A DNA stretch of 64,000 bases from Candidatus Heimdallarchaeum aukensis (GTDB lineage Archaea; Asgardarchaeota; Heimdallarchaeia; Heimdallarchaeales; Heimdallarchaeaceae), in the NCBI GenBank assembly GCA_021513695.1, contig CP084166.1, positions 2,272,001-2,336,000 of the forward strand. The letters are read 5' to 3'. This document shows positions 5,539 through 63,499 of this stretch, in pieces (within the stretch, counting starts at the first letter, position 1; each line of letters starts with the position of its first letter). A model generated the notes under the pieces. It saw only the letters and a list, made by a program, of their open reading frames with translations, searched no databases and had not been told where the DNA came from. The translations under genes were made by a program, and so were the position numbers.

Positions 5539-6465
5539 ATGACAAAGAACAAAGAAAAAAACATAACATTATCTTTACGTCCGATAACTAATCATAAAAT
5601 TAGAATAGTTAGAATCATTACACAATTAGTAATATTTAGCTTATTAAACGGGTTAATATTTGGGCTAGCTAGAGTAAGTTTAATTTTACCTATTGAATAC
5701 CCTACAGGAGGACCATTTTCTACGGTATGGAGTGGTTTTGAAGCGTTACAGTATGGGCTAACAATCTTTACCTTCCCCTATCTTGTAATAGCTATCTTTG
5801 GATTATTTGGAGCTGTGGCTGGAAAAACAACTTGTGGATGGGCTTGCCCAATGGGATTATTCCAAGATTTATTTAGTTACATCCCAATAAAAAAGAAAAA
5901 AGTTTCTAAACCAACAGAAAAGTCACTAAGAAGTTTCGCCGTGTTCATTATTATATTCGCTTTAGTATTCTCTTTAGTCATAGGAATATCTTATAATAAA
6001 AACGGTTCTGCAGCAAAAGACGCTTATGGAATATGGGGAAATATTCCTTATAGTGTGTTAGATCCCGTAGCAACAATTTTTGCAACTCTGTTTTATTATC
6101 TAAAATGGGGAATCCAAGCAGAAACACTTGGAGCTGAAATGGGTGATTGGAAATTTTGGTTTATTGCAAGAATATTATTCTTAGCAATAATCTTAATCCT
6201 CATAACCTTATATCCAAGAGCTTATTGTAGATGGTTCTGCCCAACAGGATACATATTAGGCTTTTTCAATAACTTTAGTCTATTTGGTTTAAAAATAAAT
6301 AAGAATAGATGTCCAACTGGTTGTAATAAATGTGAAAAAGCTTGTCCGGTTCAAGTACCTATACTAGATTATGATAAGAACATAACACATCCCAATTGTA
6401 CAAATTGTGGAGAATGTATAGATGCTTGTCCTGAAGGAGCTCTAAAAATAGGTTTCAGATTCTGA
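5539..6465 (+). CDS. polytopic membrane 4Fe-4S protein, NapH/MauN-like
   Basis: CGWACPMG and CRWFCPTG membrane-proximal Cys motifs, two ferredoxin motifs (CPTGCNKCEKACP, CTNCGECIDACP) and several hydrophobic helices. Confidence 0.7.
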   Translation: MTKNKEKNITLSLRPITNHKIRIVRIITQLVIFSLLNGLIFGLARVSLILPIEYPTGGPFSTVWSGFEALQYGLTIFTFPYLVIAIFGLFGAVAGKTTCGWACPMGLFQDLFSYIPIKKKKVSKPTEKSLRSFAVFIIIFALVFSLVIGISYNKNGSAAKDAYGIWGNIPYSVLDPVATIFATLFYYLKWGIQAETLGAEMGDWKFWFIARILFLAIILILITLYPRAYCRWFCPTGYILGFFNNFSLFGLKINKNRCPTGCNKCEKACPVQVPILDYDKNITHPNCTNCGECIDACPEGALKIGFRF

Positions 6466-6519
6466 TTATCCAAACTTATTTCATAGAAATTCTTTTTCTT
6501 TTCTCTTTTCTTTTTTGTA

Positions 6520-7773
6520 TTAACTTTGAATTTGTAAAGAATGATGGTATGCTTCTTTTTCTGTTTTTTGAAGAATAGAACTGTAACCTTTTTCTAAATA
6601 ATCCTGAATAATCGAAAGAACTGATTTTGATATGGGAAGTTTAACACTGTTATTAGTTTTCAGTATTTCTTCTATACTCACTTCAAGAGAGTCAAGATAA
6701 AGAGCAGCAGAATAAAGTTCCTTAATAAAGTTGTAATTCTTATGTATAATGAACCCTTTTAAATGAGACATTTTTAATAAAATCTCTGATAAAATTAAAT
6801 TAACCTTATTCGCTTGCTCTGGAATATATCGAATAGGAGAATAACCAAGTTTCATTTCATAATTATATCTAAAAGCTTTAACGCGCGGAAGAACCAATCC
6901 TAATCTTTTGAATGCTTTTCTGTCGAAATCCCCATATTTATCATTGTTTCCGTAAAGCTCTAAATATTTGGCTACCAAATGAGGATAATGTTTTCTAAGG
7001 GTATCAATAAATTCATCTTTATTTCTCCCTGGCTTAAGAGTAAGTCCCCAAGTGATAACATACTCTGCATTAGCTTTTTTTGCTTTGTGAAAAATATTTT
7101 CAATGTTTTCTTTTGTATCTCCAATAAAGGGTAAACATGGATTGAAATAAACCCCAGAATGTATTCCTTCTTTACGTAATTTAGAGATAGCTCGAAAACG
7201 ATCCTCTGAAGAACTAGCACGAGGTTCGAAAATCTTACGAACTGAATCATCCGCGAGAGTGATAGTGAAATTAACACTAGCATAAGTCTGTTCATTAATA
7301 GCTTTAAGCAAGTCAAGATCACGAAGAACGAGAGTGCTTTTTGTGAGAATGAAGACTGGTAATTCATAATCATGTATGACTTGAAGAAGTTTACGAGTAA
7401 GTTGAAGTTCTTTTTCTGCAGGTTGATAGACATCGCAAACTCCTCCACCTACAAAAATAACGAATTTAGAAGGAGAAGGCATCTGAATTCGCTCAACTGT
7501 AGTATCTAAATAGTTGAGTAATGAGTGGGATGAATTAGGAGAAAAAAATCCTCTTTTTTTGAGATATTTCTCCAAGAGCTCTGGAGCATTAACCTTAACT
7601 TTGATTCGATTAGCAAAATCTTCATGCATATAATAGGATTCAGCTTTACCGTCACAATATTTGCAATCGTGCCAACAACCCTGATAGGGATTAAGGTAAA
7701 CTTTAGCCCAAGAGAAAAAAGAAGGTGTTACTTCTTTAATTAACGATTTAGCACGAATACGTTCAATGATCAT
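6520..7773 (-). CDS. radical SAM protein, SplB/COG1533-like
   Basis: N-terminal NPYQGCWHDCKYCDG (CxxxCxxC) as in the 'DNA repair photolyase' radical SAM family. Long helical C-terminal extension. Confidence 0.6.
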   Translation of the reverse strand: MIIERIRAKSLIKEVTPSFFSWAKVYLNPYQGCWHDCKYCDGKAESYYMHEDFANRIKVKVNAPELLEKYLKKRGFFSPNSSHSLLNYLDTTVERIQMPSPSKFVIFVGGGVCDVYQPAEKELQLTRKLLQVIHDYELPVFILTKSTLVLRDLDLLKAINEQTYASVNFTITLADDSVRKIFEPRASSSEDRFRAISKLRKEGIHSGVYFNPCLPFIGDTKENIENIFHKAKKANAEYVITWGLTLKPGRNKDEFIDTLRKHYPHLVAKYLELYGNNDKYGDFDRKAFKRLGLVLPRVKAFRYNYEMKLGYSPIRYIPEQANKVNLILSEILLKMSHLKGFIIHKNYNFIKELYSAALYLDSLEVSIEEILKTNNSVKLPISKSVLSIIQDYLEKGYSSILQKTEKEAYHHSLQIQS

Positions 7774-11055: not shown

Positions 11056-11096
11056 AACGAAAATTTTAAAACAGTTAAAAAAGTAGAAGTATCAGA
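11056..11096 (+). promoter_or_regulatory. copy 1 of duplicated upstream module (probable tRNA promoter with TTTTAAAA TATA-like box)
   Basis: 41 nt identical to 11275-11315 (aacgaaaattttaaaacagttaaaaaagtagaagtatcaga). Degenerate similarity continues to the tRNA. Ends 36 nt before tRNA-Lys(CUU). Confidence 0.6.
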
Positions 11097-11274: not shown

Positions 11275-11315
11275 AACGAAAATTTTAAAACAGTTAAAAA
11301 AGTAGAAGTATCAGA
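11275..11315 (+). promoter_or_regulatory. copy 2 of duplicated upstream module (probable tRNA promoter)
   Basis: 41/41 identity with 11056-11096. Ends 32 nt before tRNA-Lys(UUU). Confidence 0.6.
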
Positions 11316-11347: not shown

Positions 11348-11455
11348 GGGCTTGTAGCTCAGCTAGGTAGAGCAGCAGGCTTTTAAGCTTTCTGCGAGCC
11401 ATGCAAAAGCGCTGACACCTGTCGGCCATGGGTTCGAATCCCATCAAGCCCGCCA
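11348..11455 (+). tRNA. tRNA-Lys (anticodon TTT) with about 31-nt intron at canonical 37/38 position, CCA encoded
   Basis: Acceptor GGGCTTG/CAAGCCC, D stem GCTC/GAGC, anticodon stem GCAGG/CCTGT, loop CTTTTA|A split by 11386-11416, T arm ATGGG-TTCGAAT-CCCAT, discriminator G then CCA. Intron AAAAGC can pair with GCUUUU of the anticodon region (BHB-like). Confidence 0.85.
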
Positions 11456-19785: not shown

Positions 19786-20916
19786 ATGAGTGATGATGAT
19801 GAATATAAAATAAAGAAGGAATTGGAAGAATTAAAGAAAAGAAATCAAGAATTAGAGAAAATGATTAAAGCTGTATTTAACAGAATGGATAAGATAAATG
19901 GTTCAAGAAAAGAAGATGAAAAAACAGGTGATAATGTCTCTGATAAAATCGAAAAAAAAGAGATTGAAAAGCTTCTTGAAAAAGATCTCAGACGGTTAAA
20001 AAAGGAAAGAATCAGCAACCAACATCATAGACACCACTTCTCTCCTAATTTAGAAGAAAGAAGATTTGAACGTGATGAGAGAGTTCATTCGATACGAAGA
20101 GCTCCTTCTCCTCCTAGCGCTCCTTCTACACCTAGAACTCCTTCCACACCTAAAGAACCTTTACCTCCAGAACATATCGGTCGTCCTCCAAGAAAACACA
20201 TTTTATTGTCTAAAGAAGAGATTGCTCGAGCTAGAGAAGAGATTAAACGTGCAAAGGAAGAGCTTCGACGAGAAAGAGAACGAATGAGACTTGAAGCTAG
20301 AAGAAAAGCTTTAGAATCTGCAAAAAAATCTGATGTTAAGCCATTTATTTTTTCTAAAAATATCGATTTAGATGGTTTTGGAGAAACAATCTCAAAGTAC
20401 GTTGAAAGTATCCTAGAATCTGTTTCAAGAAATATCGAAGAAACTGTAAAAAGTGCTTTTTCAACAGAAAAATCTTCAACTGGTAGAATCTCTGGTTCCA
20501 ATTTTCCCACATCAAATAAAAAGGCTAGTAAATTTTCCTTTCCTTACGATTACAGGAGGATTCCTATAGACGAAATAGAATCCTACCTTGATGAGATATC
20601 TGAGCTTTTATCTGCAATAGGTGATAAGAATCGATTACATATCTTAAAATTGCTTGAACTTCAACCTGAATATCAAAAAGAGCTTTCAGAAAAAACTGGT
20701 CTTCGTGGTGGTACATTTAAGCATCATACAGACATTCTTGCAAAAAATGGACTTATTACACAAGAAACAGTAAGAGGAAGATATCTTATAACACAACTAG
20801 GGATTGAAGCTCTAAAGTTAGCAGAGATATTATATACCAGAAAACAGGACCTGTATTCTTCAGAAGATTCGTTAGATGATGAAGATGATGATGAAATAAA
20901 TATTGATATTAATTAG
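19786..20916 (+). CDS. coiled-coil / proline-rich / C-terminal ArsR-type wHTH fusion protein
   Basis: ggagg RBS. C-terminal NRLHILKLLELQPEYQKELSEKTGLRGGTFKHHTDILAKNGLI is ArsR/SmtB-like. Central APSPPSAPSTPRTPSTPKEPLPPE tract, flanking K/E/R coiled coil, acidic tail. Confidence 0.7.
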   Translation: MSDDDEYKIKKELEELKKRNQELEKMIKAVFNRMDKINGSRKEDEKTGDNVSDKIEKKEIEKLLEKDLRRLKKERISNQHHRHHFSPNLEERRFERDERVHSIRRAPSPPSAPSTPRTPSTPKEPLPPEHIGRPPRKHILLSKEEIARAREEIKRAKEELRRERERMRLEARRKALESAKKSDVKPFIFSKNIDLDGFGETISKYVESILESVSRNIEETVKSAFSTEKSSTGRISGSNFPTSNKKASKFSFPYDYRRIPIDEIESYLDEISELLSAIGDKNRLHILKLLELQPEYQKELSEKTGLRGGTFKHHTDILAKNGLITQETVRGRYLITQLGIEALKLAEILYTRKQDLYSSEDSLDDEDDDEINIDIN

Positions 20917-29653: not shown

Positions 29654-30994
29654 ATGAACTTGGAGAACAATTTTTTAACCTTTTTTTTAGCTTGTAAATA
29701 TCGTTTTAAAAATTTAAAAGGAGAAAAGCTTCAAAGATATCAAGAAAATCGGTTGAAGAAAATTGTTGATTATAGTGTAAAAAATTCTCCTTTTTTTAAG
29801 AGGTATTATTCTAATTACAACATTAATGATGTTTTCAATTTACCGACTGTAAATAAACATATAATGATGGAAAACCTATCAGAGTATAACACAGTTGGTT
29901 TTACAAAAGAAGAATTAATCAATTTCTGTTTGGAAGTGGAAAGGTCTAGGGACTTTTCTAAGAGATATAAAAAGTATAATGTTGCTATGTCTTCTGGAAC
30001 AAGCGGAAATAAAGGAATTGTAATAACTAGTCCAAAAGAAGAACGATATCTTAAAGCAGCTTTTTTTGCACGATTCCCTTTTCCTAGAACCTTGAAATTA
30101 AATATCGCTTTTATTTTGAGGGTTAGTACTCCTGCATTTAACATTAATAAATTTGGACAGAAACTCACCCATTTCAGTTTGCTTGATCCCCTAGAAGAAA
30201 TAGTAGAAAATCTAAACTCGCTTCAACCAAATATTCTCTCTGCTCCTCCTTCAATGCTCAATCTTCTTGCGGACGAGTACAGTGAGGGAAAGTTATGCAT
30301 TAAACCAAAAAAAATTATCTCTTATGCTGAAATCTTATATCCCGATATTAGAAAAAAAGTTGAAGAAACTTTTGGTATTAGAATTGATGAAATCTACCAA
30401 GCAAGTGAAGGCCCAATCGCTATGACTTGTAAACATGGATCATTACACATAAATGAAGACCTACTTGTTTTACAAACTCTAAACGAAGATGGTAGTCCAA
30501 CAGAAAAAGGAGAACTTTGCCACAAACTTATTGTATCTGATTTATATAAAACATCTCAACCCATAATCCGCTTTGAACTTAACGATATGATTAGAATAAG
30601 AGCTGAAAAATGTACTTGCGGTTCTGGATTTAGAATAATCGATGAAATTGTAGGGCGAACTGATGATTTATTAATTGGGGTTAATTCATCTACTGGTCAG
30701 GTTCATTACATTTTTCCTGATTATATACGCAGAGCTATTATCTCTTCTTCTGAGCAAGTAATCGAGTATCAAGCAATTCAAACCAGTAAAAACAGATTAG
30801 AAATTTCAATTCAATTATCAAAAGATAAAGACGAATTCCAAAACATCAAATCAGTTATCAAAAGAGCTGTAGAACAAGTTTTCAAAACTTACAATTGTGA
30901 GATTCCTGATGTTACAGTGAAAATTAGTCAATCTCAACTTCATCCAGTTTCTAAGAAGTTAATACGCATTCAACGAAAGTTTTCTATTGCTTGA
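29654..30994 (+). CDS. adenylate-forming enzyme, phenylacetate-CoA ligase / F390 synthetase family (COG1541-like)
   Basis: MSSGTSGNKG (SSGTTG-type P-loop), YQASEG, GRTDDLLIG motifs. Confidence 0.7.
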   Translation: MNLENNFLTFFLACKYRFKNLKGEKLQRYQENRLKKIVDYSVKNSPFFKRYYSNYNINDVFNLPTVNKHIMMENLSEYNTVGFTKEELINFCLEVERSRDFSKRYKKYNVAMSSGTSGNKGIVITSPKEERYLKAAFFARFPFPRTLKLNIAFILRVSTPAFNINKFGQKLTHFSLLDPLEEIVENLNSLQPNILSAPPSMLNLLADEYSEGKLCIKPKKIISYAEILYPDIRKKVEETFGIRIDEIYQASEGPIAMTCKHGSLHINEDLLVLQTLNEDGSPTEKGELCHKLIVSDLYKTSQPIIRFELNDMIRIRAEKCTCGSGFRIIDEIVGRTDDLLIGVNSSTGQVHYIFPDYIRRAIISSSEQVIEYQAIQTSKNRLEISIQLSKDKDEFQNIKSVIKRAVEQVFKTYNCEIPDVTVKISQSQLHPVSKKLIRIQRKFSIA

Positions 30995-53177: not shown

Positions 53178-53657
53178 CTATAAGATTAAACGATAAAGAT
53201 AGGCATTTTCTCCATCTTCATAATATTTTCGAATAGTTCTGATTCGCTTAAAACCCATTTTTTCATATAGATTAATTGCATAATTATTAGTTACTCTTAC
53301 CTCGAGTTTAATCGAACTAAAACCTAGTTCTTTTACTTTAGTTACGAAGTATCTAAGCAGCATTTTTCCGTATCCTTTCTTCCTAAAATTTCTATGAATT
53401 GCTATAGAAAGTATATGTGCTTCAGACTTAAATGATGATCTTCCACCAAGAATGAAACCTATTATCTTGCTATTAGAATTACTATTATCCAATAAATTAA
53501 CATCTGTTTCTAAAACAAAGCATAGGTCAGGATTCTGAAAGAAAATTAAGGAAATATACGATTCAGGGAAAGGAAATGCAAACGTGATTCGCTCTAAATC
53601 ATAAACATCAATAATATCTTCAGCTTGCATTTCCCTTATCTGCACCATAAGTTTCAC
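53178..53657 (-). CDS. rimI: GNAT N-acetyltransferase (RimI/Ard1-type)
   Basis: IREMQAEDIIDVYDLE..., acetyl-CoA motif RNFRKKGYGKMLL, NNYAINLYEKMGF. Confidence 0.75.
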   Translation of the reverse strand: MKLMVQIREMQAEDIIDVYDLERITFAFPFPESYISLIFFQNPDLCFVLETDVNLLDNSNSNSKIIGFILGGRSSFKSEAHILSIAIHRNFRKKGYGKMLLRYFVTKVKELGFSSIKLEVRVTNNYAINLYEKMGFKRIRTIRKYYEDGENAYLYRLIL

Positions 53658-53764
53658 AATTAGTAGTCATTGATTACAACCATAGTTTAGTAGAAAAAAA
53701 CTTTGTGTTCTATTAAATAGTTTAAAATAGGGAAAGTTAAATAAGACTTTGAGTAGATTCTTAT

Positions 53765-53998
53765 GCCTTCTATCGAGGACTTGCTAGAGGTTGTTTATGA
53801 CAAACGATGAAAGCAAGAGCAAAAAGAAGGCTACAGCCTATCATATACGGGCTCTTTACCAAGTTGAGTGTGTCACTCAGAACAATGAGGTTGAGTCAAC
53901 CCTGATAGGCTACATTGGGTTCTCCTGAGGAGCTCTGCTAGCAGATGTGGGGTTGTCCCAAAGATGAAGCTTAGTGTTAGCCTTAGGGGAACCCTTTA
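53765..53998 (+). ncRNA. candidate structured ncRNA of unassigned family (strand inferred from neighbours)
   Basis: GC-rich island with no ORF. Hairpins ttgagtg/cactcag (53864-53880), ggttg/caacc (53889-53901), ctcc/ggag (53922-53932). Long-range agcctatca (53835-43) pairs with tgataggct (53903-11); gctagc (53937-42) pairs with gttagc (53976-81). Confidence 0.5.
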
Positions 53999-54057
53999 GT
54001 TATATTGAAACAGAAAAATTAAAAATAGGTTGGAATTAAGCAATTCAGTAGAAAATA

Positions 54058-54132
54058 GGGGTAGTAGTCTAGTGGTATGACAACGCCTTCACGCGGCGTA
54101 GGTCGCAGGTTCAATTCCTGCCTACCCCACCA
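54058..54132 (+). tRNA. tRNA-Val (anticodon CAC), CCA encoded
   Basis: Acceptor GGGGTAG/CTACCCC, anticodon stem ACGCC/GGCGT with loop TTCACGC, T arm GCAGG-TTCAATT-CCTGC, discriminator A then CCA. Confidence 0.9.
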
Positions 54133-54155
54133 CTAACAATTTGTTGAGAAATCAA

Positions 54156-61780: not shown

Positions 61781-63499
61781 TTAGCAACCCGGAGTGAAGT
61801 AAGGCTTAAGTTCTCCAATATGAGAATCTTCTTCGAGAGTTGCTATCTGATAAATTTTATACCCTCCAGTTAGATTTCTTGGATCAAAACCATGTTGCTT
61901 TAGAATTCGGTATGCGAGATAAGAAGTGAATCCAGTCACACAATGTAGATATACTGGCTTATTTTTTGGAATCTCATCTAGCCTTTCTCTTAATTGACCA
62001 ATAGGTATGTTTATCGCACCTGGAATACAACCTTCAGCATGTAATTCTGGTCCTCTTACGTCAATAATTGTCGCCCCTTCTTCTTTTAATTTCTGTGCTT
62101 CATTCCAATGCCATATCTTCACTTCTCCCCTCATTACGTTAGAAGCAACAAAACCAGCCATATTTACACAATCTCTGGCACAACCAAATTGTGGAGCATA
62201 GCACAATTCAAGATTTTCTAAATCATATACTGTCCCCTTAAAGTTTATAACTGTTGCAATGACATCTATCCTTTTTTCTGTTCCTGGCCCACCTACTGCT
62301 TGTGCTCCTAATATTCTGCCATTTTTAGAGTCAAAAATCAGTTTCATTGATATTTCTTGGGCATCAGGGTAGTAACTTGCATGATTTTGGGGATGAACAT
62401 AGATTTTCTCATAGTTAGTAATTCCTAATGATTTGAGTTGTTTCTCGTTTAATCCAGTTTGAGCAACAGTTTTGTCAAAGACTTTAAGAACAGCCGTACC
62501 TATTGAGCCTTTGTAAGTTGTATCTCTTCCAGCAAGATTGTCAGCAGCTATTCTCCCTTCTCTGTTAGCTGGACCAGCAAGAGGAACAACAGTCGGCTTT
62601 TCAGTAATGAAATTTTTAATCTGAACAGCATCACCTACAGCATATATATCAGGGTCAGAGGTTTGCATGTGTTCGTCAACTATTATATATCCTCGTTCAG
62701 TTAGTTCGAGACCACAATCTTTAGCTAAATGTGTGTCTGGTCTAATCCCTATACTCAAAATGACAAGATCTGTTCCAATTTTCCTTCCGCTTTTAGTAAT
62801 AACTTTGTACTTTCCTTCTCCATCTGTAGACTTCTCAATGCCTACAACCCCATCTCCTAAAATAAGTTTGACCCTATTGAGTACAAGTTCATTATGGATA
62901 AATTGTGCCATCTCTCTGTCTAATGTAGGTAAAACTTGGTCTAAAAGTTCAATTACTTTTACACGAATACCTCTTCGACTAAGATTTTCGACCATTTCTA
63001 ATCCTATATACCCTCCTCCTATTACTGTTGCTGTAACAGGGTTGTTCTTCTCAATAAATTCATATATTTTTTCTGTATCTGGAATATTACGGAGAGAAAA
63101 AATAGGTATATCATCCATTCCTCTGAAAGGAGGACGAATTGGCTCTGCACCAGGTGCTAAAACAAGCTTGTCATAAGAAAGTTCATACTCTTTTCCCACT
63201 TCTCTGTCAATCACTTTAACTATTTTCCTTTCTCGATCGATTGAAATAGCCTCATTCAAAACTCTGACATCAATATTGAAAAACTGTTTAAATTTTTCAG
63301 GTGTCATTAAAACTAGTTTTTCGCGGTCTTGTATCACTTTTCCAATATAATAAGGAAGACCACAGTTTGCAAAAGAAACATATGGTCCTCGTTCTAGTAT
63401 TATTATTTCCGCAAATTCATCTAATCGCCGATATCTAGCTGCTGTGCTTGCGCCACCAGCAACACCACCTATTATTATTATTCTCTTTTTCAATTTCAT
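61781..63499 (-). CDS. CoA-disulfide reductase / NADH oxidase family flavoprotein with C-terminal rhodanese domain
   Basis: IIIIGGVAGGAS, redox Cys SFANCGLPYY, second dinucleotide fold VIGGGYIGLE. C-terminal rhodanese with LHCVTGFTS active-site loop. Confidence 0.85.
   Translation of the reverse strand: MKLKKRIIIIGGVAGGASTAARYRRLDEFAEIIILERGPYVSFANCGLPYYIGKVIQDREKLVLMTPEKFKQFFNIDVRVLNEAISIDRERKIVKVIDREVGKEYELSYDKLVLAPGAEPIRPPFRGMDDIPIFSLRNIPDTEKIYEFIEKNNPVTATVIGGGYIGLEMVENLSRRGIRVKVIELLDQVLPTLDREMAQFIHNELVLNRVKLILGDGVVGIEKSTDGEGKYKVITKSGRKIGTDLVILSIGIRPDTHLAKDCGLELTERGYIIVDEHMQTSDPDIYAVGDAVQIKNFITEKPTVVPLAGPANREGRIAADNLAGRDTTYKGSIGTAVLKVFDKTVAQTGLNEKQLKSLGITNYEKIYVHPQNHASYYPDAQEISMKLIFDSKNGRILGAQAVGGPGTEKRIDVIATVINFKGTVYDLENLELCYAPQFGCARDCVNMAGFVASNVMRGEVKIWHWNEAQKLKEEGATIIDVRGPELHAEGCIPGAINIPIGQLRERLDEIPKNKPVYLHCVTGFTSYLAYRILKQHGFDPRNLTGGYKIYQIATLEEDSHIGELKPYFTPGC

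Follow-up and report, generated by a model that had tools for sequence, protein, structure and literature searches.

The intergenic segment at 53765-53994 (+ strand) of a 64-kb window from the Asgard archaeon Candidatus Heimdallarchaeum aukensis (64,000 nucleotides (nt) of contig CP084166.1, positions 2,272,001 to 2,336,000; all coordinates below are those of this window) is very probably an H/ACA guide RNA of the Pab40 family. It is a structured, GC-enriched, non-coding segment of ~230 nt lying upstream of a tRNA-Val gene. Judged from its sequence, it contains two canonical H/ACA modules followed by a third that is H/ACA-like, and appears to be the counterpart of the Pab40/Pf7/Pho40/Afu4 (HgcG) RNAs and, for two of its modules, also of sR-h45 of Haloferax. 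The support consists of homology in sequence and structure, of motif geometry and of complementarity to archaeal 23S ribosomal RNA (rRNA) consensus sequences; expression, protein binding and the actual modifications are predicted by analogy. A preliminary description of the segment had called the RNA unassigned and had seen no H/ACA pattern in it. Neither statement held: two canonical ACA boxes, three kink-turns (K-turns) and three pseudouridylation pockets were found, and a known family, RF00064, aligned with the RNA over its full length (E = 8e-11).

When compared with the Rfam models, the segment aligned end to end with RF00064 (HgcG/Pab40; model positions 1-276) at 50.5 bits, with E = 9e-13 in the local scan and E = 8.4e-11 for the same alignment when the whole window was searched with 4227 families. 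This was the sole strong sub-threshold hit among all Rfam families in the window, where only the signal recognition particle RNA and three transfer RNAs (tRNAs) reached the curated thresholds. The RNA had been left unassigned because its score lies under the threshold of its family, the curated gathering threshold of RF00064 being 77 bits. The E value nevertheless indicates homology; the RF00064 seed presumably covers only GC-rich hyperthermophiles, as judged from its GC-rich consensus. The preliminary description had held that a clean Rfam hit would make the RNA known rather than novel; in substance a known family was indeed matched, although below its gathering threshold. The HgcE model gave a weak additional match on hairpin 1. 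Models of RNase P, 5S rRNA and box C/D RNAs did not match at E values up to 10 in the local scan or up to 0.05 in the window scan, in agreement with the earlier exclusion of these classes.

In the RF00064 alignment 48 of the 57 model pairs were standard, 25 of them kept despite both partners differing from the family consensus, counts to be read with the caveat that the alignment is fitted to the model and that a consensus is no real sequence. For motif 1 the figure was 13 of 15 pairs, six via changes on both sides relative to the consensus, and for motif 3 it was 18 of 20. The three motifs stand in the order of the family. The family guides are kept in motif 1 and in the 3' strands of motifs 2 and 3, whereas the 5' guides of motifs 2 and 3 diverge. 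The segments common with the Pyrococcus consensus are CGAGGA and GC.A in motif 1, AACCCU in motif 2 and UGUUA in motif 3.

The + strand of the full 234 nt folded into three consecutive hairpins with -85.3 kcal/mol, a better fold than that of shuffled sequences (z = -3.8), which bears out the earlier view of a structured RNA dense in stems. Folded singly, hairpins 1, 2 and 3 gave z values of -4.0, -3.1 and -3.4, respectively. The published rules for archaeal H/ACA RNAs (Muller et al. 2008, PMC2377435; Toffano-Nioche et al. 2015, PMC4652768) include a lower stem of 7-9 base pairs (bp), with a minimum of 7 bp in the descriptor of PMC2377435, loop strands of 5-11 nt and an ACA/ANA box 14-16 nt from the upper stem; the second G.A pair of the K-turn is placed 8-11 layers above the pocket, the range of the GA stem (PMC4652768). 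The lower stems, the guide strands (5-8 nt), the GA stems and the two ACA distances of the Heimdallarchaeum RNA are within the published ranges. The strands of the pocket loops measure 8/7, 6/5 and 6/5 nt in hairpins 1, 2 and 3. Hairpins 1 and 3 have K-turns with tandem G.A/A.G pairs and a 3-nt bulge, and hairpin 2 has a G.A plus an A.A pair.

All three motifs were delimited from the minimum free energy fold and the RF00064 alignment, and all lie on the + strand. Motif 1 (hairpin 1, 53765-53831) has a 7-bp lower stem H1 (53765-71/53825-31) and a 6-bp upper stem H2 (53780-85/53812-17), between which lie the 5' guide AUCGAGGA (53772-79) and the 3' guide AGCAAAA (53818-24). The K-turn and apical stem-loop occupy 53786-53811, with G53787-A53788 opposite the bulge G53806-A-U plus G53809-A53810, and with A53786 and A53811 as an A.A layer. 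The GAUGA of this motif aligns with the conserved AAUGA/GAUGA of the HgcG model, and the GA stem has 9 layers. A stretch of 15 nt (53818-53832) separates the closing pair of H2 from the ACA box (53833-53835), which is aligned to the ACA of HgcG.

Motif 2 (hairpin 2, 53836-53910) is built in the same way, from an 8-bp H1 (53836-43/53903-10), the 5' guide UAUACG (53844-49), a 5-bp H2 (53850-54/53893-97) that continues through a UUU/U loop into ACC/GGU (53858-60/53889-91), and the 3' guide AACCC (53898-53902). In the HgcG consensus the 3' guide of motif 2 has the same AACCCUG. In the K-turn A53861-A53862 stands opposite the bulge A53884-A-U plus G53887-A53888, the GA stem having 10-11 layers. The ACA box (53912-53914) is 14 nt (53898-53911) from H2 and, like that of motif 1, is aligned to an HgcG ACA. 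A 9-bp pairing noticed earlier (53835-43 with 53903-11) proved to be the lower stem of this hairpin. The direct repeat aggctaca, which was found as described at 53828-35 and 53907-14, is explained by the architecture, because the 3' end of a lower stem (AGGC), a U and an ACA box occur twice.

Motif 3 (hairpin 3, 53917-53994) is H/ACA-like. Its lower helix (53917-26/53985-94) has 10 bp and can be extended to 14 bp through 53927-30/53981-84. The 5' guide AGCUCU (53931-36), a 6-bp H2 with U53971 bulged (53937-42/53969-75) and the 3' guide GUUAG (53976-80) form the pocket. The K-turn has G53944-A53945 opposite the bulge G53963-A-U plus G53966-A53967, a layout like that of hairpin 1 (A-GA-NG ... 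GAU-GA-A), with a GA stem of 9 layers; both GAUGA and UGUUA recur unchanged in motif 3 of Pab40. The local hairpins proposed earlier at 53889-901 and 53922-32 and the pairing of 53937-42 with 53976-81 can be drawn, but they compete with the three-hairpin fold and fall outside the K-turn-compatible model. The RNA most likely stops where the helix of hairpin 3 ends, at 53994, and not at 53998 as had been given.

By homology to the family, L7Ae would bind each K-turn and Cbf5-Nop10-Gar1 would dock onto the lower stem and ACA box. The two strands of the internal loop would base-pair with the 23S rRNA sequences that flank an unpaired U-N, which would bring the target U, ~15 nt from the ACA box, into the active site of Cbf5. 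Each RNA would assemble three (or two) Cbf5-Nop10-Gar1-L7Ae units and so direct the pseudouridylation of specific 23S rRNA sites close to the peptidyl-transferase centre. Cbf5 has been reported in Asgard genomes (PMC10833476).

Experiments on Pab40 assigned its motif 1 to 23S U2588 of P. abyssi and its motif 3 to U2016 in helix 69, and motif 2 of Pf7, Pho40 and Afu4 was argued to guide the equivalent of U2678 (Muller et al. 2008, PMC2377435). According to the same study, the U2678 equivalent is a pseudouridine in Haloarcula, Halobacterium, Drosophila and mouse, and P. abyssi 2016 and 2588 correspond to highly conserved pseudouridines of eukaryotic large rRNA. The targets of the Heimdallarchaeum RNA were assigned on 23S sequences of archaea other than Heimdallarchaeum. 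The guides of module 1 are complementary to archaeal 23S UUUGC-U-N-CCUCGAUG (E. coli U2496 = P. abyssi U2588). In the duplex, the 3' guide would form 5 bp (G53819-A53823 with C2495-U2491, UUUGC) and the 5' guide 7-8 bp (G53778-A53772 with C2498-U2504, CCUCGAU), leaving U2496 and N2497 unpaired. The E. coli 23S numbers of the target sites are those we take to be modified positions, checked by the spacing of the motifs. A search pattern derived from both guide strands and the universal GUCGGCUC (TTTGYT N1-2 CCTCGATGTCGGCTC) matched more than 120 metagenomic 23S genes, including ~40 loci of archaeal type. Among the 121 matches listed, all carry UUUG(C/U)-U-(A/U)-CCUCGAUG and 116 read UUUGCUACCUCGAUG. 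Module 1 probably directs pseudouridylation of the U2496 equivalent (P. abyssi 2588) in the peptidyl-transferase centre.

In these 23S genes the GGGUU-U site lies 90 nt downstream (+90) of the module 1 site and the helix 69 UAAC-U site at about -572 nt from it. These spacings are the differences among P. abyssi 2588, 2678 and 2016, the sites of the three Pab40-family motifs, and the check is non-circular. The 3' guide of module 2, AACCC, pairs perfectly over 5 bp with the GGGUU preceding U2586. On this complementarity it seems somewhat more probable than its opposite that module 2 directs modification of the U2586 equivalent (P. abyssi 2678, H. volcanii 2605).

Comparison of orthologous regions, which the preliminary description had proposed, detected the RNA in three Heimdallarchaeum genomes: that of the window, the syntenic locus of H. 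endolithica and a third assembly. It differs among them at 4 of 230 positions, and all four differences are compatible with the fold. C/U at 53784 turns a C:G pair in H2 of hairpin 1 into U.G; A/G at 53985 turns an A:U pair in H1 of hairpin 3 into G.U; G/A at 53952, at the apex of hairpin 3, either converts G.U into A:U or is a loop position; and U/A at 53873 is in the apical loop of hairpin 2. The divergence of the RNA (1.7%) is about that of the tRNA (1.3%) and lower than that of the adjacent spacers (4-5%); it is also below the genome average, the two described Heimdallarchaeum species having 88% average nucleotide and 90% average amino acid identity (Wu et al. 2022, PMC8813620). The third assembly is nearly identical to H. 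endolithica and thus adds no real covariation. The comparison within the genus is weak comparative evidence.

Several observations weigh against the assignment or against the predicted targets. The RF00064 score falls short of the gathering score (50.5 against 77 bits). A loose single-hairpin H/ACA descriptor gave ~1.8 matches per shuffled window, and hairpin 1 alone is therefore not significant; since a single hairpin is insufficient, significance comes from the score of the covariance model together with the tandem arrangement and the conservation. In the window this descriptor matched hairpin 1 and one other site, 30385-30449 (+), which is inside an open reading frame (ORF) of 446 amino acids (aa) and is a chance match. 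The K-turn of module 2 is non-standard, with A.A in place of A.G at position 2b.2n. The flanking intergenic DNA is well conserved too (the 4-5% divergence given above). No homologue of the RNA was found outside the genus by synteny walks and Rfam scans of representative loci. The loci reached through an acetyltransferase homologue (49% identity; L004-L007) lacked the RNA, as did those reached through FrhB homologues of 48% (L140, L141) and 42% identity (Heimdallarchaeota AB_125 lineage, L142-L145), and Rfam scans of representatives L004, L140 and L142 gave no HgcG-like match. Synteny is lost in the next relatives of Heimdallarchaeum.

As to the targets, all assignments rest on the 23S rRNA of other archaea and not on that of the host, and the loci that back the module 1 site were picked with a pattern built from that very guide, which makes this evidence partly circular. 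A stricter pattern with four U (TTTTGCN{2,4}CCTCGATGTCGGCTC) matched no archaeal rRNA in 185,579 species genomes, indicating that the A-run of the module 1 3' guide is not fully used. (The sole matches of this pattern were two bacterial loci without neighbouring 23S motifs; the pattern was over-specified.) The 5' guide of module 2 pairs merely as ACGG:CCGU after three unpaired nt, and an alternative pairing through ACGGGC has a G.A mismatch and opens H2. In unbiased scans of foreign archaeal 23S sequences U2586 was not a unique top match for module 2. More generally, unbiased scans with modules 2 and 3 of foreign archaeal 23S and of the window's own RNAs and transcripts yielded no unique conserved site.

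The role of module 3 is less certain than that of the other two. Its 3' guide (U)GUUA is that of Pab40 motif 3 and pairs with the UAAC before U1915, and on this identity the module appears to descend from a helix 69 (E. coli 1915) module. However, no ANA box was found in module 3, none being present within 19 nt of H2. The position aligned to the ACA of RF00064 is taken by CCC (53992-94), which is paired with GGG (53917-19), and the helix reaches 19 nt beyond H2. Moreover, the 5' guide AGCUCU does not pair with helix 69 as it stands in all of the archaeal 23S loci matched (GGGAG-UAACUNURA-CUCUC and variants). It would fit solely a hypothetical helix 69 stem, GGAGC-UAACUNUGA-GCUCC. Heimdallarchaeum could have such an unusual helix 69, in which a GGAGC...GCUCC stem with a flipped closing pair would fit both guides of module 3. 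A scan of viral contigs for this variant gave 7 matches, of which the one inspected was not rRNA. In Haloferax, guides to typical UN targets can do without the ACA box up to 17 nt, but require it at 19 nt and for the helix 69 UNUN (Majumder et al. 2020), so that an ACA-less helix 69 module is doubtful. Module 3 may be a relic or a variant, and that it guides helix 69 is possible but not the likelier outcome.

If module 3 were a relic, the gene would be a partly decayed H/ACA gene in which modules 1 and 2 guide, whereas the third has lost any guide role and has become just a stable 3' hairpin, an L7Ae-binding element or a terminator. This is a tentative alternative that we consider seriously without preferring it. 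The missing ANA box, the CCC-GGG pairing in its place, the 19-nt 3' strand from H2 to the end of the helix, a distance at which the Haloferax guides required the box, and the misfit of the 5' guide to canonical helix 69 all favour it. On the other hand, the K-turn, H2 and the UGUUA 3' guide are intact, and the module varies at only 2 of 78 positions across the three genomes, both changes being compatible with the fold, whereas a decaying module should have diverged more quickly than the other two. A quite unlikely interpretation is that module 3 is a working guide in which the extended helix replaces the ACA anchor, an H/ACA variant not described so far. If this were true, a single RNA with three modules, from the archaeal lineage nearest to eukaryotes, would serve three sites at which eukaryotes have pseudouridine as well.

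Other explanations of the whole segment were considered. It precedes tRNA-Val by 63 nt on the same strand and no strong oligo-T terminator follows it, so it could be a 5' leader or processed spacer of the tRNA-Val precursor, or else a cis-regulatory element of its neighbours. But it has its own TATA-like element ~25 nt upstream, with a separate one for tRNA-Val, and the three H/ACA motifs account for the whole sequence; co-transcription with the tRNA would in any case leave the identity of the RNA unchanged. We regard this explanation as highly improbable. Slightly less probable still is a new structured RNA unrelated to known families. Although no Rfam family reaches its gathering score here, the end-to-end HgcG alignment (E = 8e-11), the ACA boxes and K-turns at canonical distances and the guide sequences common with the Pab40 motifs contradict it. 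That the segment encodes a small protein can practically be dismissed. Short open frames exist, the longest ATG frame having 32 codons (53807-53905) and a TTG frame 45 codons, but three of the four substitutions between genomes are at stem positions with pairing preserved, the fourth being in a loop, and the RNA-family alignment covers the whole segment. Neither frame is long enough to point to a gene. The preliminary description had put the longest ATG frame at 15 codons.

The H/ACA guide RNA proposed here resembles the three-motif H/ACA small RNAs (sRNAs) of Thermococcales and Archaeoglobus (HgcG/Pab40/Pf7/Pho40 of RF00064, and Afu4) in having three tandem K-turn hairpins in the same order, an ACA after motifs 1 and 2, and predicted targets equivalent to P. 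abyssi 2588, 2678 (the site proposed for Pf7/Pho40/Afu4) and 2016. Unlike those of HgcG/Pab40, its stems are AT-rich and different at most positions (with 25 double-sided changes relative to the consensus), its motif 3 lacks an ACA, and its motifs 2 and 3 have other 5' guides; it comes from an Asgard archaeon, whereas the hosts of HgcG/Pab40 are euryarchaeal. Haloferax volcanii sR-h45 likewise joins a GGGUU-U module and a helix 69 module in one RNA. Its stem-loop 1 guides 2605: U2603 and U2604 are held by two A's of the 3' guide, and U2605 is the modified residue. Its stem-loop 2 guides helix 69 (Majumder et al. 2020). The AACCC arrangement of module 2 is parallel to this. sR-h45, which was likened here by its description and not by its sequence, differs in having two stem-loops, a 56-nt linker and no E. 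coli 2496 module, and its helix 69 module needs the ACA box to modify two uridines in the unpaired UNUN.

Eukaryotic box H/ACA small nucleolar RNAs (snoRNAs) use the same guide principle and the same enzyme family (Cbf5/dyskerin), but have two hairpins with an H box (ANANNA) between them and no K-turn. The Heimdallarchaeum RNA, with its linkers UACA and UACAUU, its K-turns and its three hairpins, has the archaeal architecture. The H/ACA-like sRNAs of Pyrobaculum consist of a K-turn hairpin and guides without the canonical lower stem plus ACA (PMC4652768). Module 3 is like them merely in missing the ACA anchor: the Pyrobaculum RNAs have a shortened lower stem or none, whereas that of module 3 is a helix of 10-14 bp that swallows the ACA position.

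H/ACA sRNAs, the three-motif family and its targets are already known; novel are the sub-threshold Asgard member and its ACA-less third module, and the gain is one of annotation and comparison rather than of concept. No account of H/ACA guide RNAs in Asgard archaea turned up in literature searches. The assignment would explain what a conserved intergenic RNA does in a genome that is among the few closed ones of Asgard archaea. It would extend the Pab40/Afu4-type multi-module K-turn H/ACA RNA past Euryarchaeota into Heimdallarchaeia, and predict pseudouridines at peptidyl-transferase-centre positions that are also modified in eukaryotes. It also suggests that AT-rich members escape Rfam thresholds that were trained on GC-rich hyperthermophiles. 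The segment had been noticed by its base composition, and G+C contrast is indeed an established route to such RNAs, the P. furiosus member of the HgcG family having been found by a G+C-content screen (PMC2377435).

The G+C content is 0.40-0.51 over 53750-53999 and 0.24-0.36 in the flanks, so that the GC island reported earlier was confirmed. It is inside an intergenic gap of 483 nt between a divergent acetyltransferase gene on the upstream side (53178-53648/57, -) and a DNA-methylase gene starting at 54141 (+). The same-strand tRNA-Val reported just downstream was also found, as tRNA-Val(CAC) at 54058-54132 (+). The acetyltransferase shares 90% identity with a Ca. Heimdallarchaeum endolithica protein, and the FrhB-like neighbour shares 98% with one from a Heimdallarchaeum metagenome-assembled genome. 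The mechanically called acetyltransferase ORF (53178-53657, -) has a GTG start and 159 aa, and public assemblies record a 156-aa form with an ATG start, which was matched exactly in the Logan assemblies SRR15988954 and SRR15988958 as well as on a contig of more than 1 Mb. The DNA-methylase gene is intact in the window and in H. endolithica, and is broken into two ORFs (228 and 66 aa) in the third Heimdallarchaeum assembly (L138, 3927-4952).

Upstream of the RNA, a putative promoter element AGTTAAATAAG (53735-53745, +) can be read from the sequence, with the TATA-like TTAAATAA at -28 to -21 relative to 53765; the tRNA-Val gene has its own, separate AT-rich TATA-like element. The motif AGTTAAAAAAG of the promoter-like element recurs upstream of tRNA-Lys and of a tRNA at 11348. 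In the form AGTTAAA(T/A)AAG it is present on the + strand at 53735-53745, ~11074-11084 and ~11292-11302, ahead of the H/ACA RNA, of tRNA-Lys and of the neighbouring tRNA, and is a candidate B recognition element/TATA promoter consensus for stable-RNA genes of this genome. At the other end, a T-rich tract TTTAGTTATATTG (53995-54007, +) follows the last helix and is a possible transcript end. The oligo-T is not strong, as the tract after hairpin 3 has no run of at least 5 T, and read-through towards tRNA-Val is therefore possible.

Some further observations were made on the 23S genes and on the window. In several metagenomic archaeal 23S genes, insertions, some with LAGLIDADG ORFs, were found at or beside the guide target sites: directly 5' of UUUGCUACC in L102 (~790-830), after the GGGU of GGGUUU in L083 (~1400-1830), and near helix 69 in L043 (~1590-2130) and in L137 (minus strand, 5600-7267). 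The last of these, one of only two database matches obtained with spurious antisense ORFs of 23S, is an intron-rich archaeal 23S gene with a further insertion after E. coli position ~2600. In Heimdallarchaeum genomes no 5S rRNA gene could be predicted, and a mobile element lies between the single 16S gene and tRNA-Arg(TCT) (Wu et al. 2022, PMC8813620). The best match of the module 3 pocket in the window was GCUAAC-U-U-UAGAGCUUC in a minus-strand transcript at 20816 (6 + 9 bp), probably by chance. A weak Rfam match to the Vibrio antisense RNA V_AS7 at 63300-63468 (+; 35.5 bits, E = 0.004), far under the gathering score, is most likely also due to chance. The tRNA at 11348-11452 (+), which adjoins tRNA-Lys, was detected by Rfam as a 105-nt gene (60.7 bits) and was unreported by ARAGORN; it is probably an intron-containing gene.

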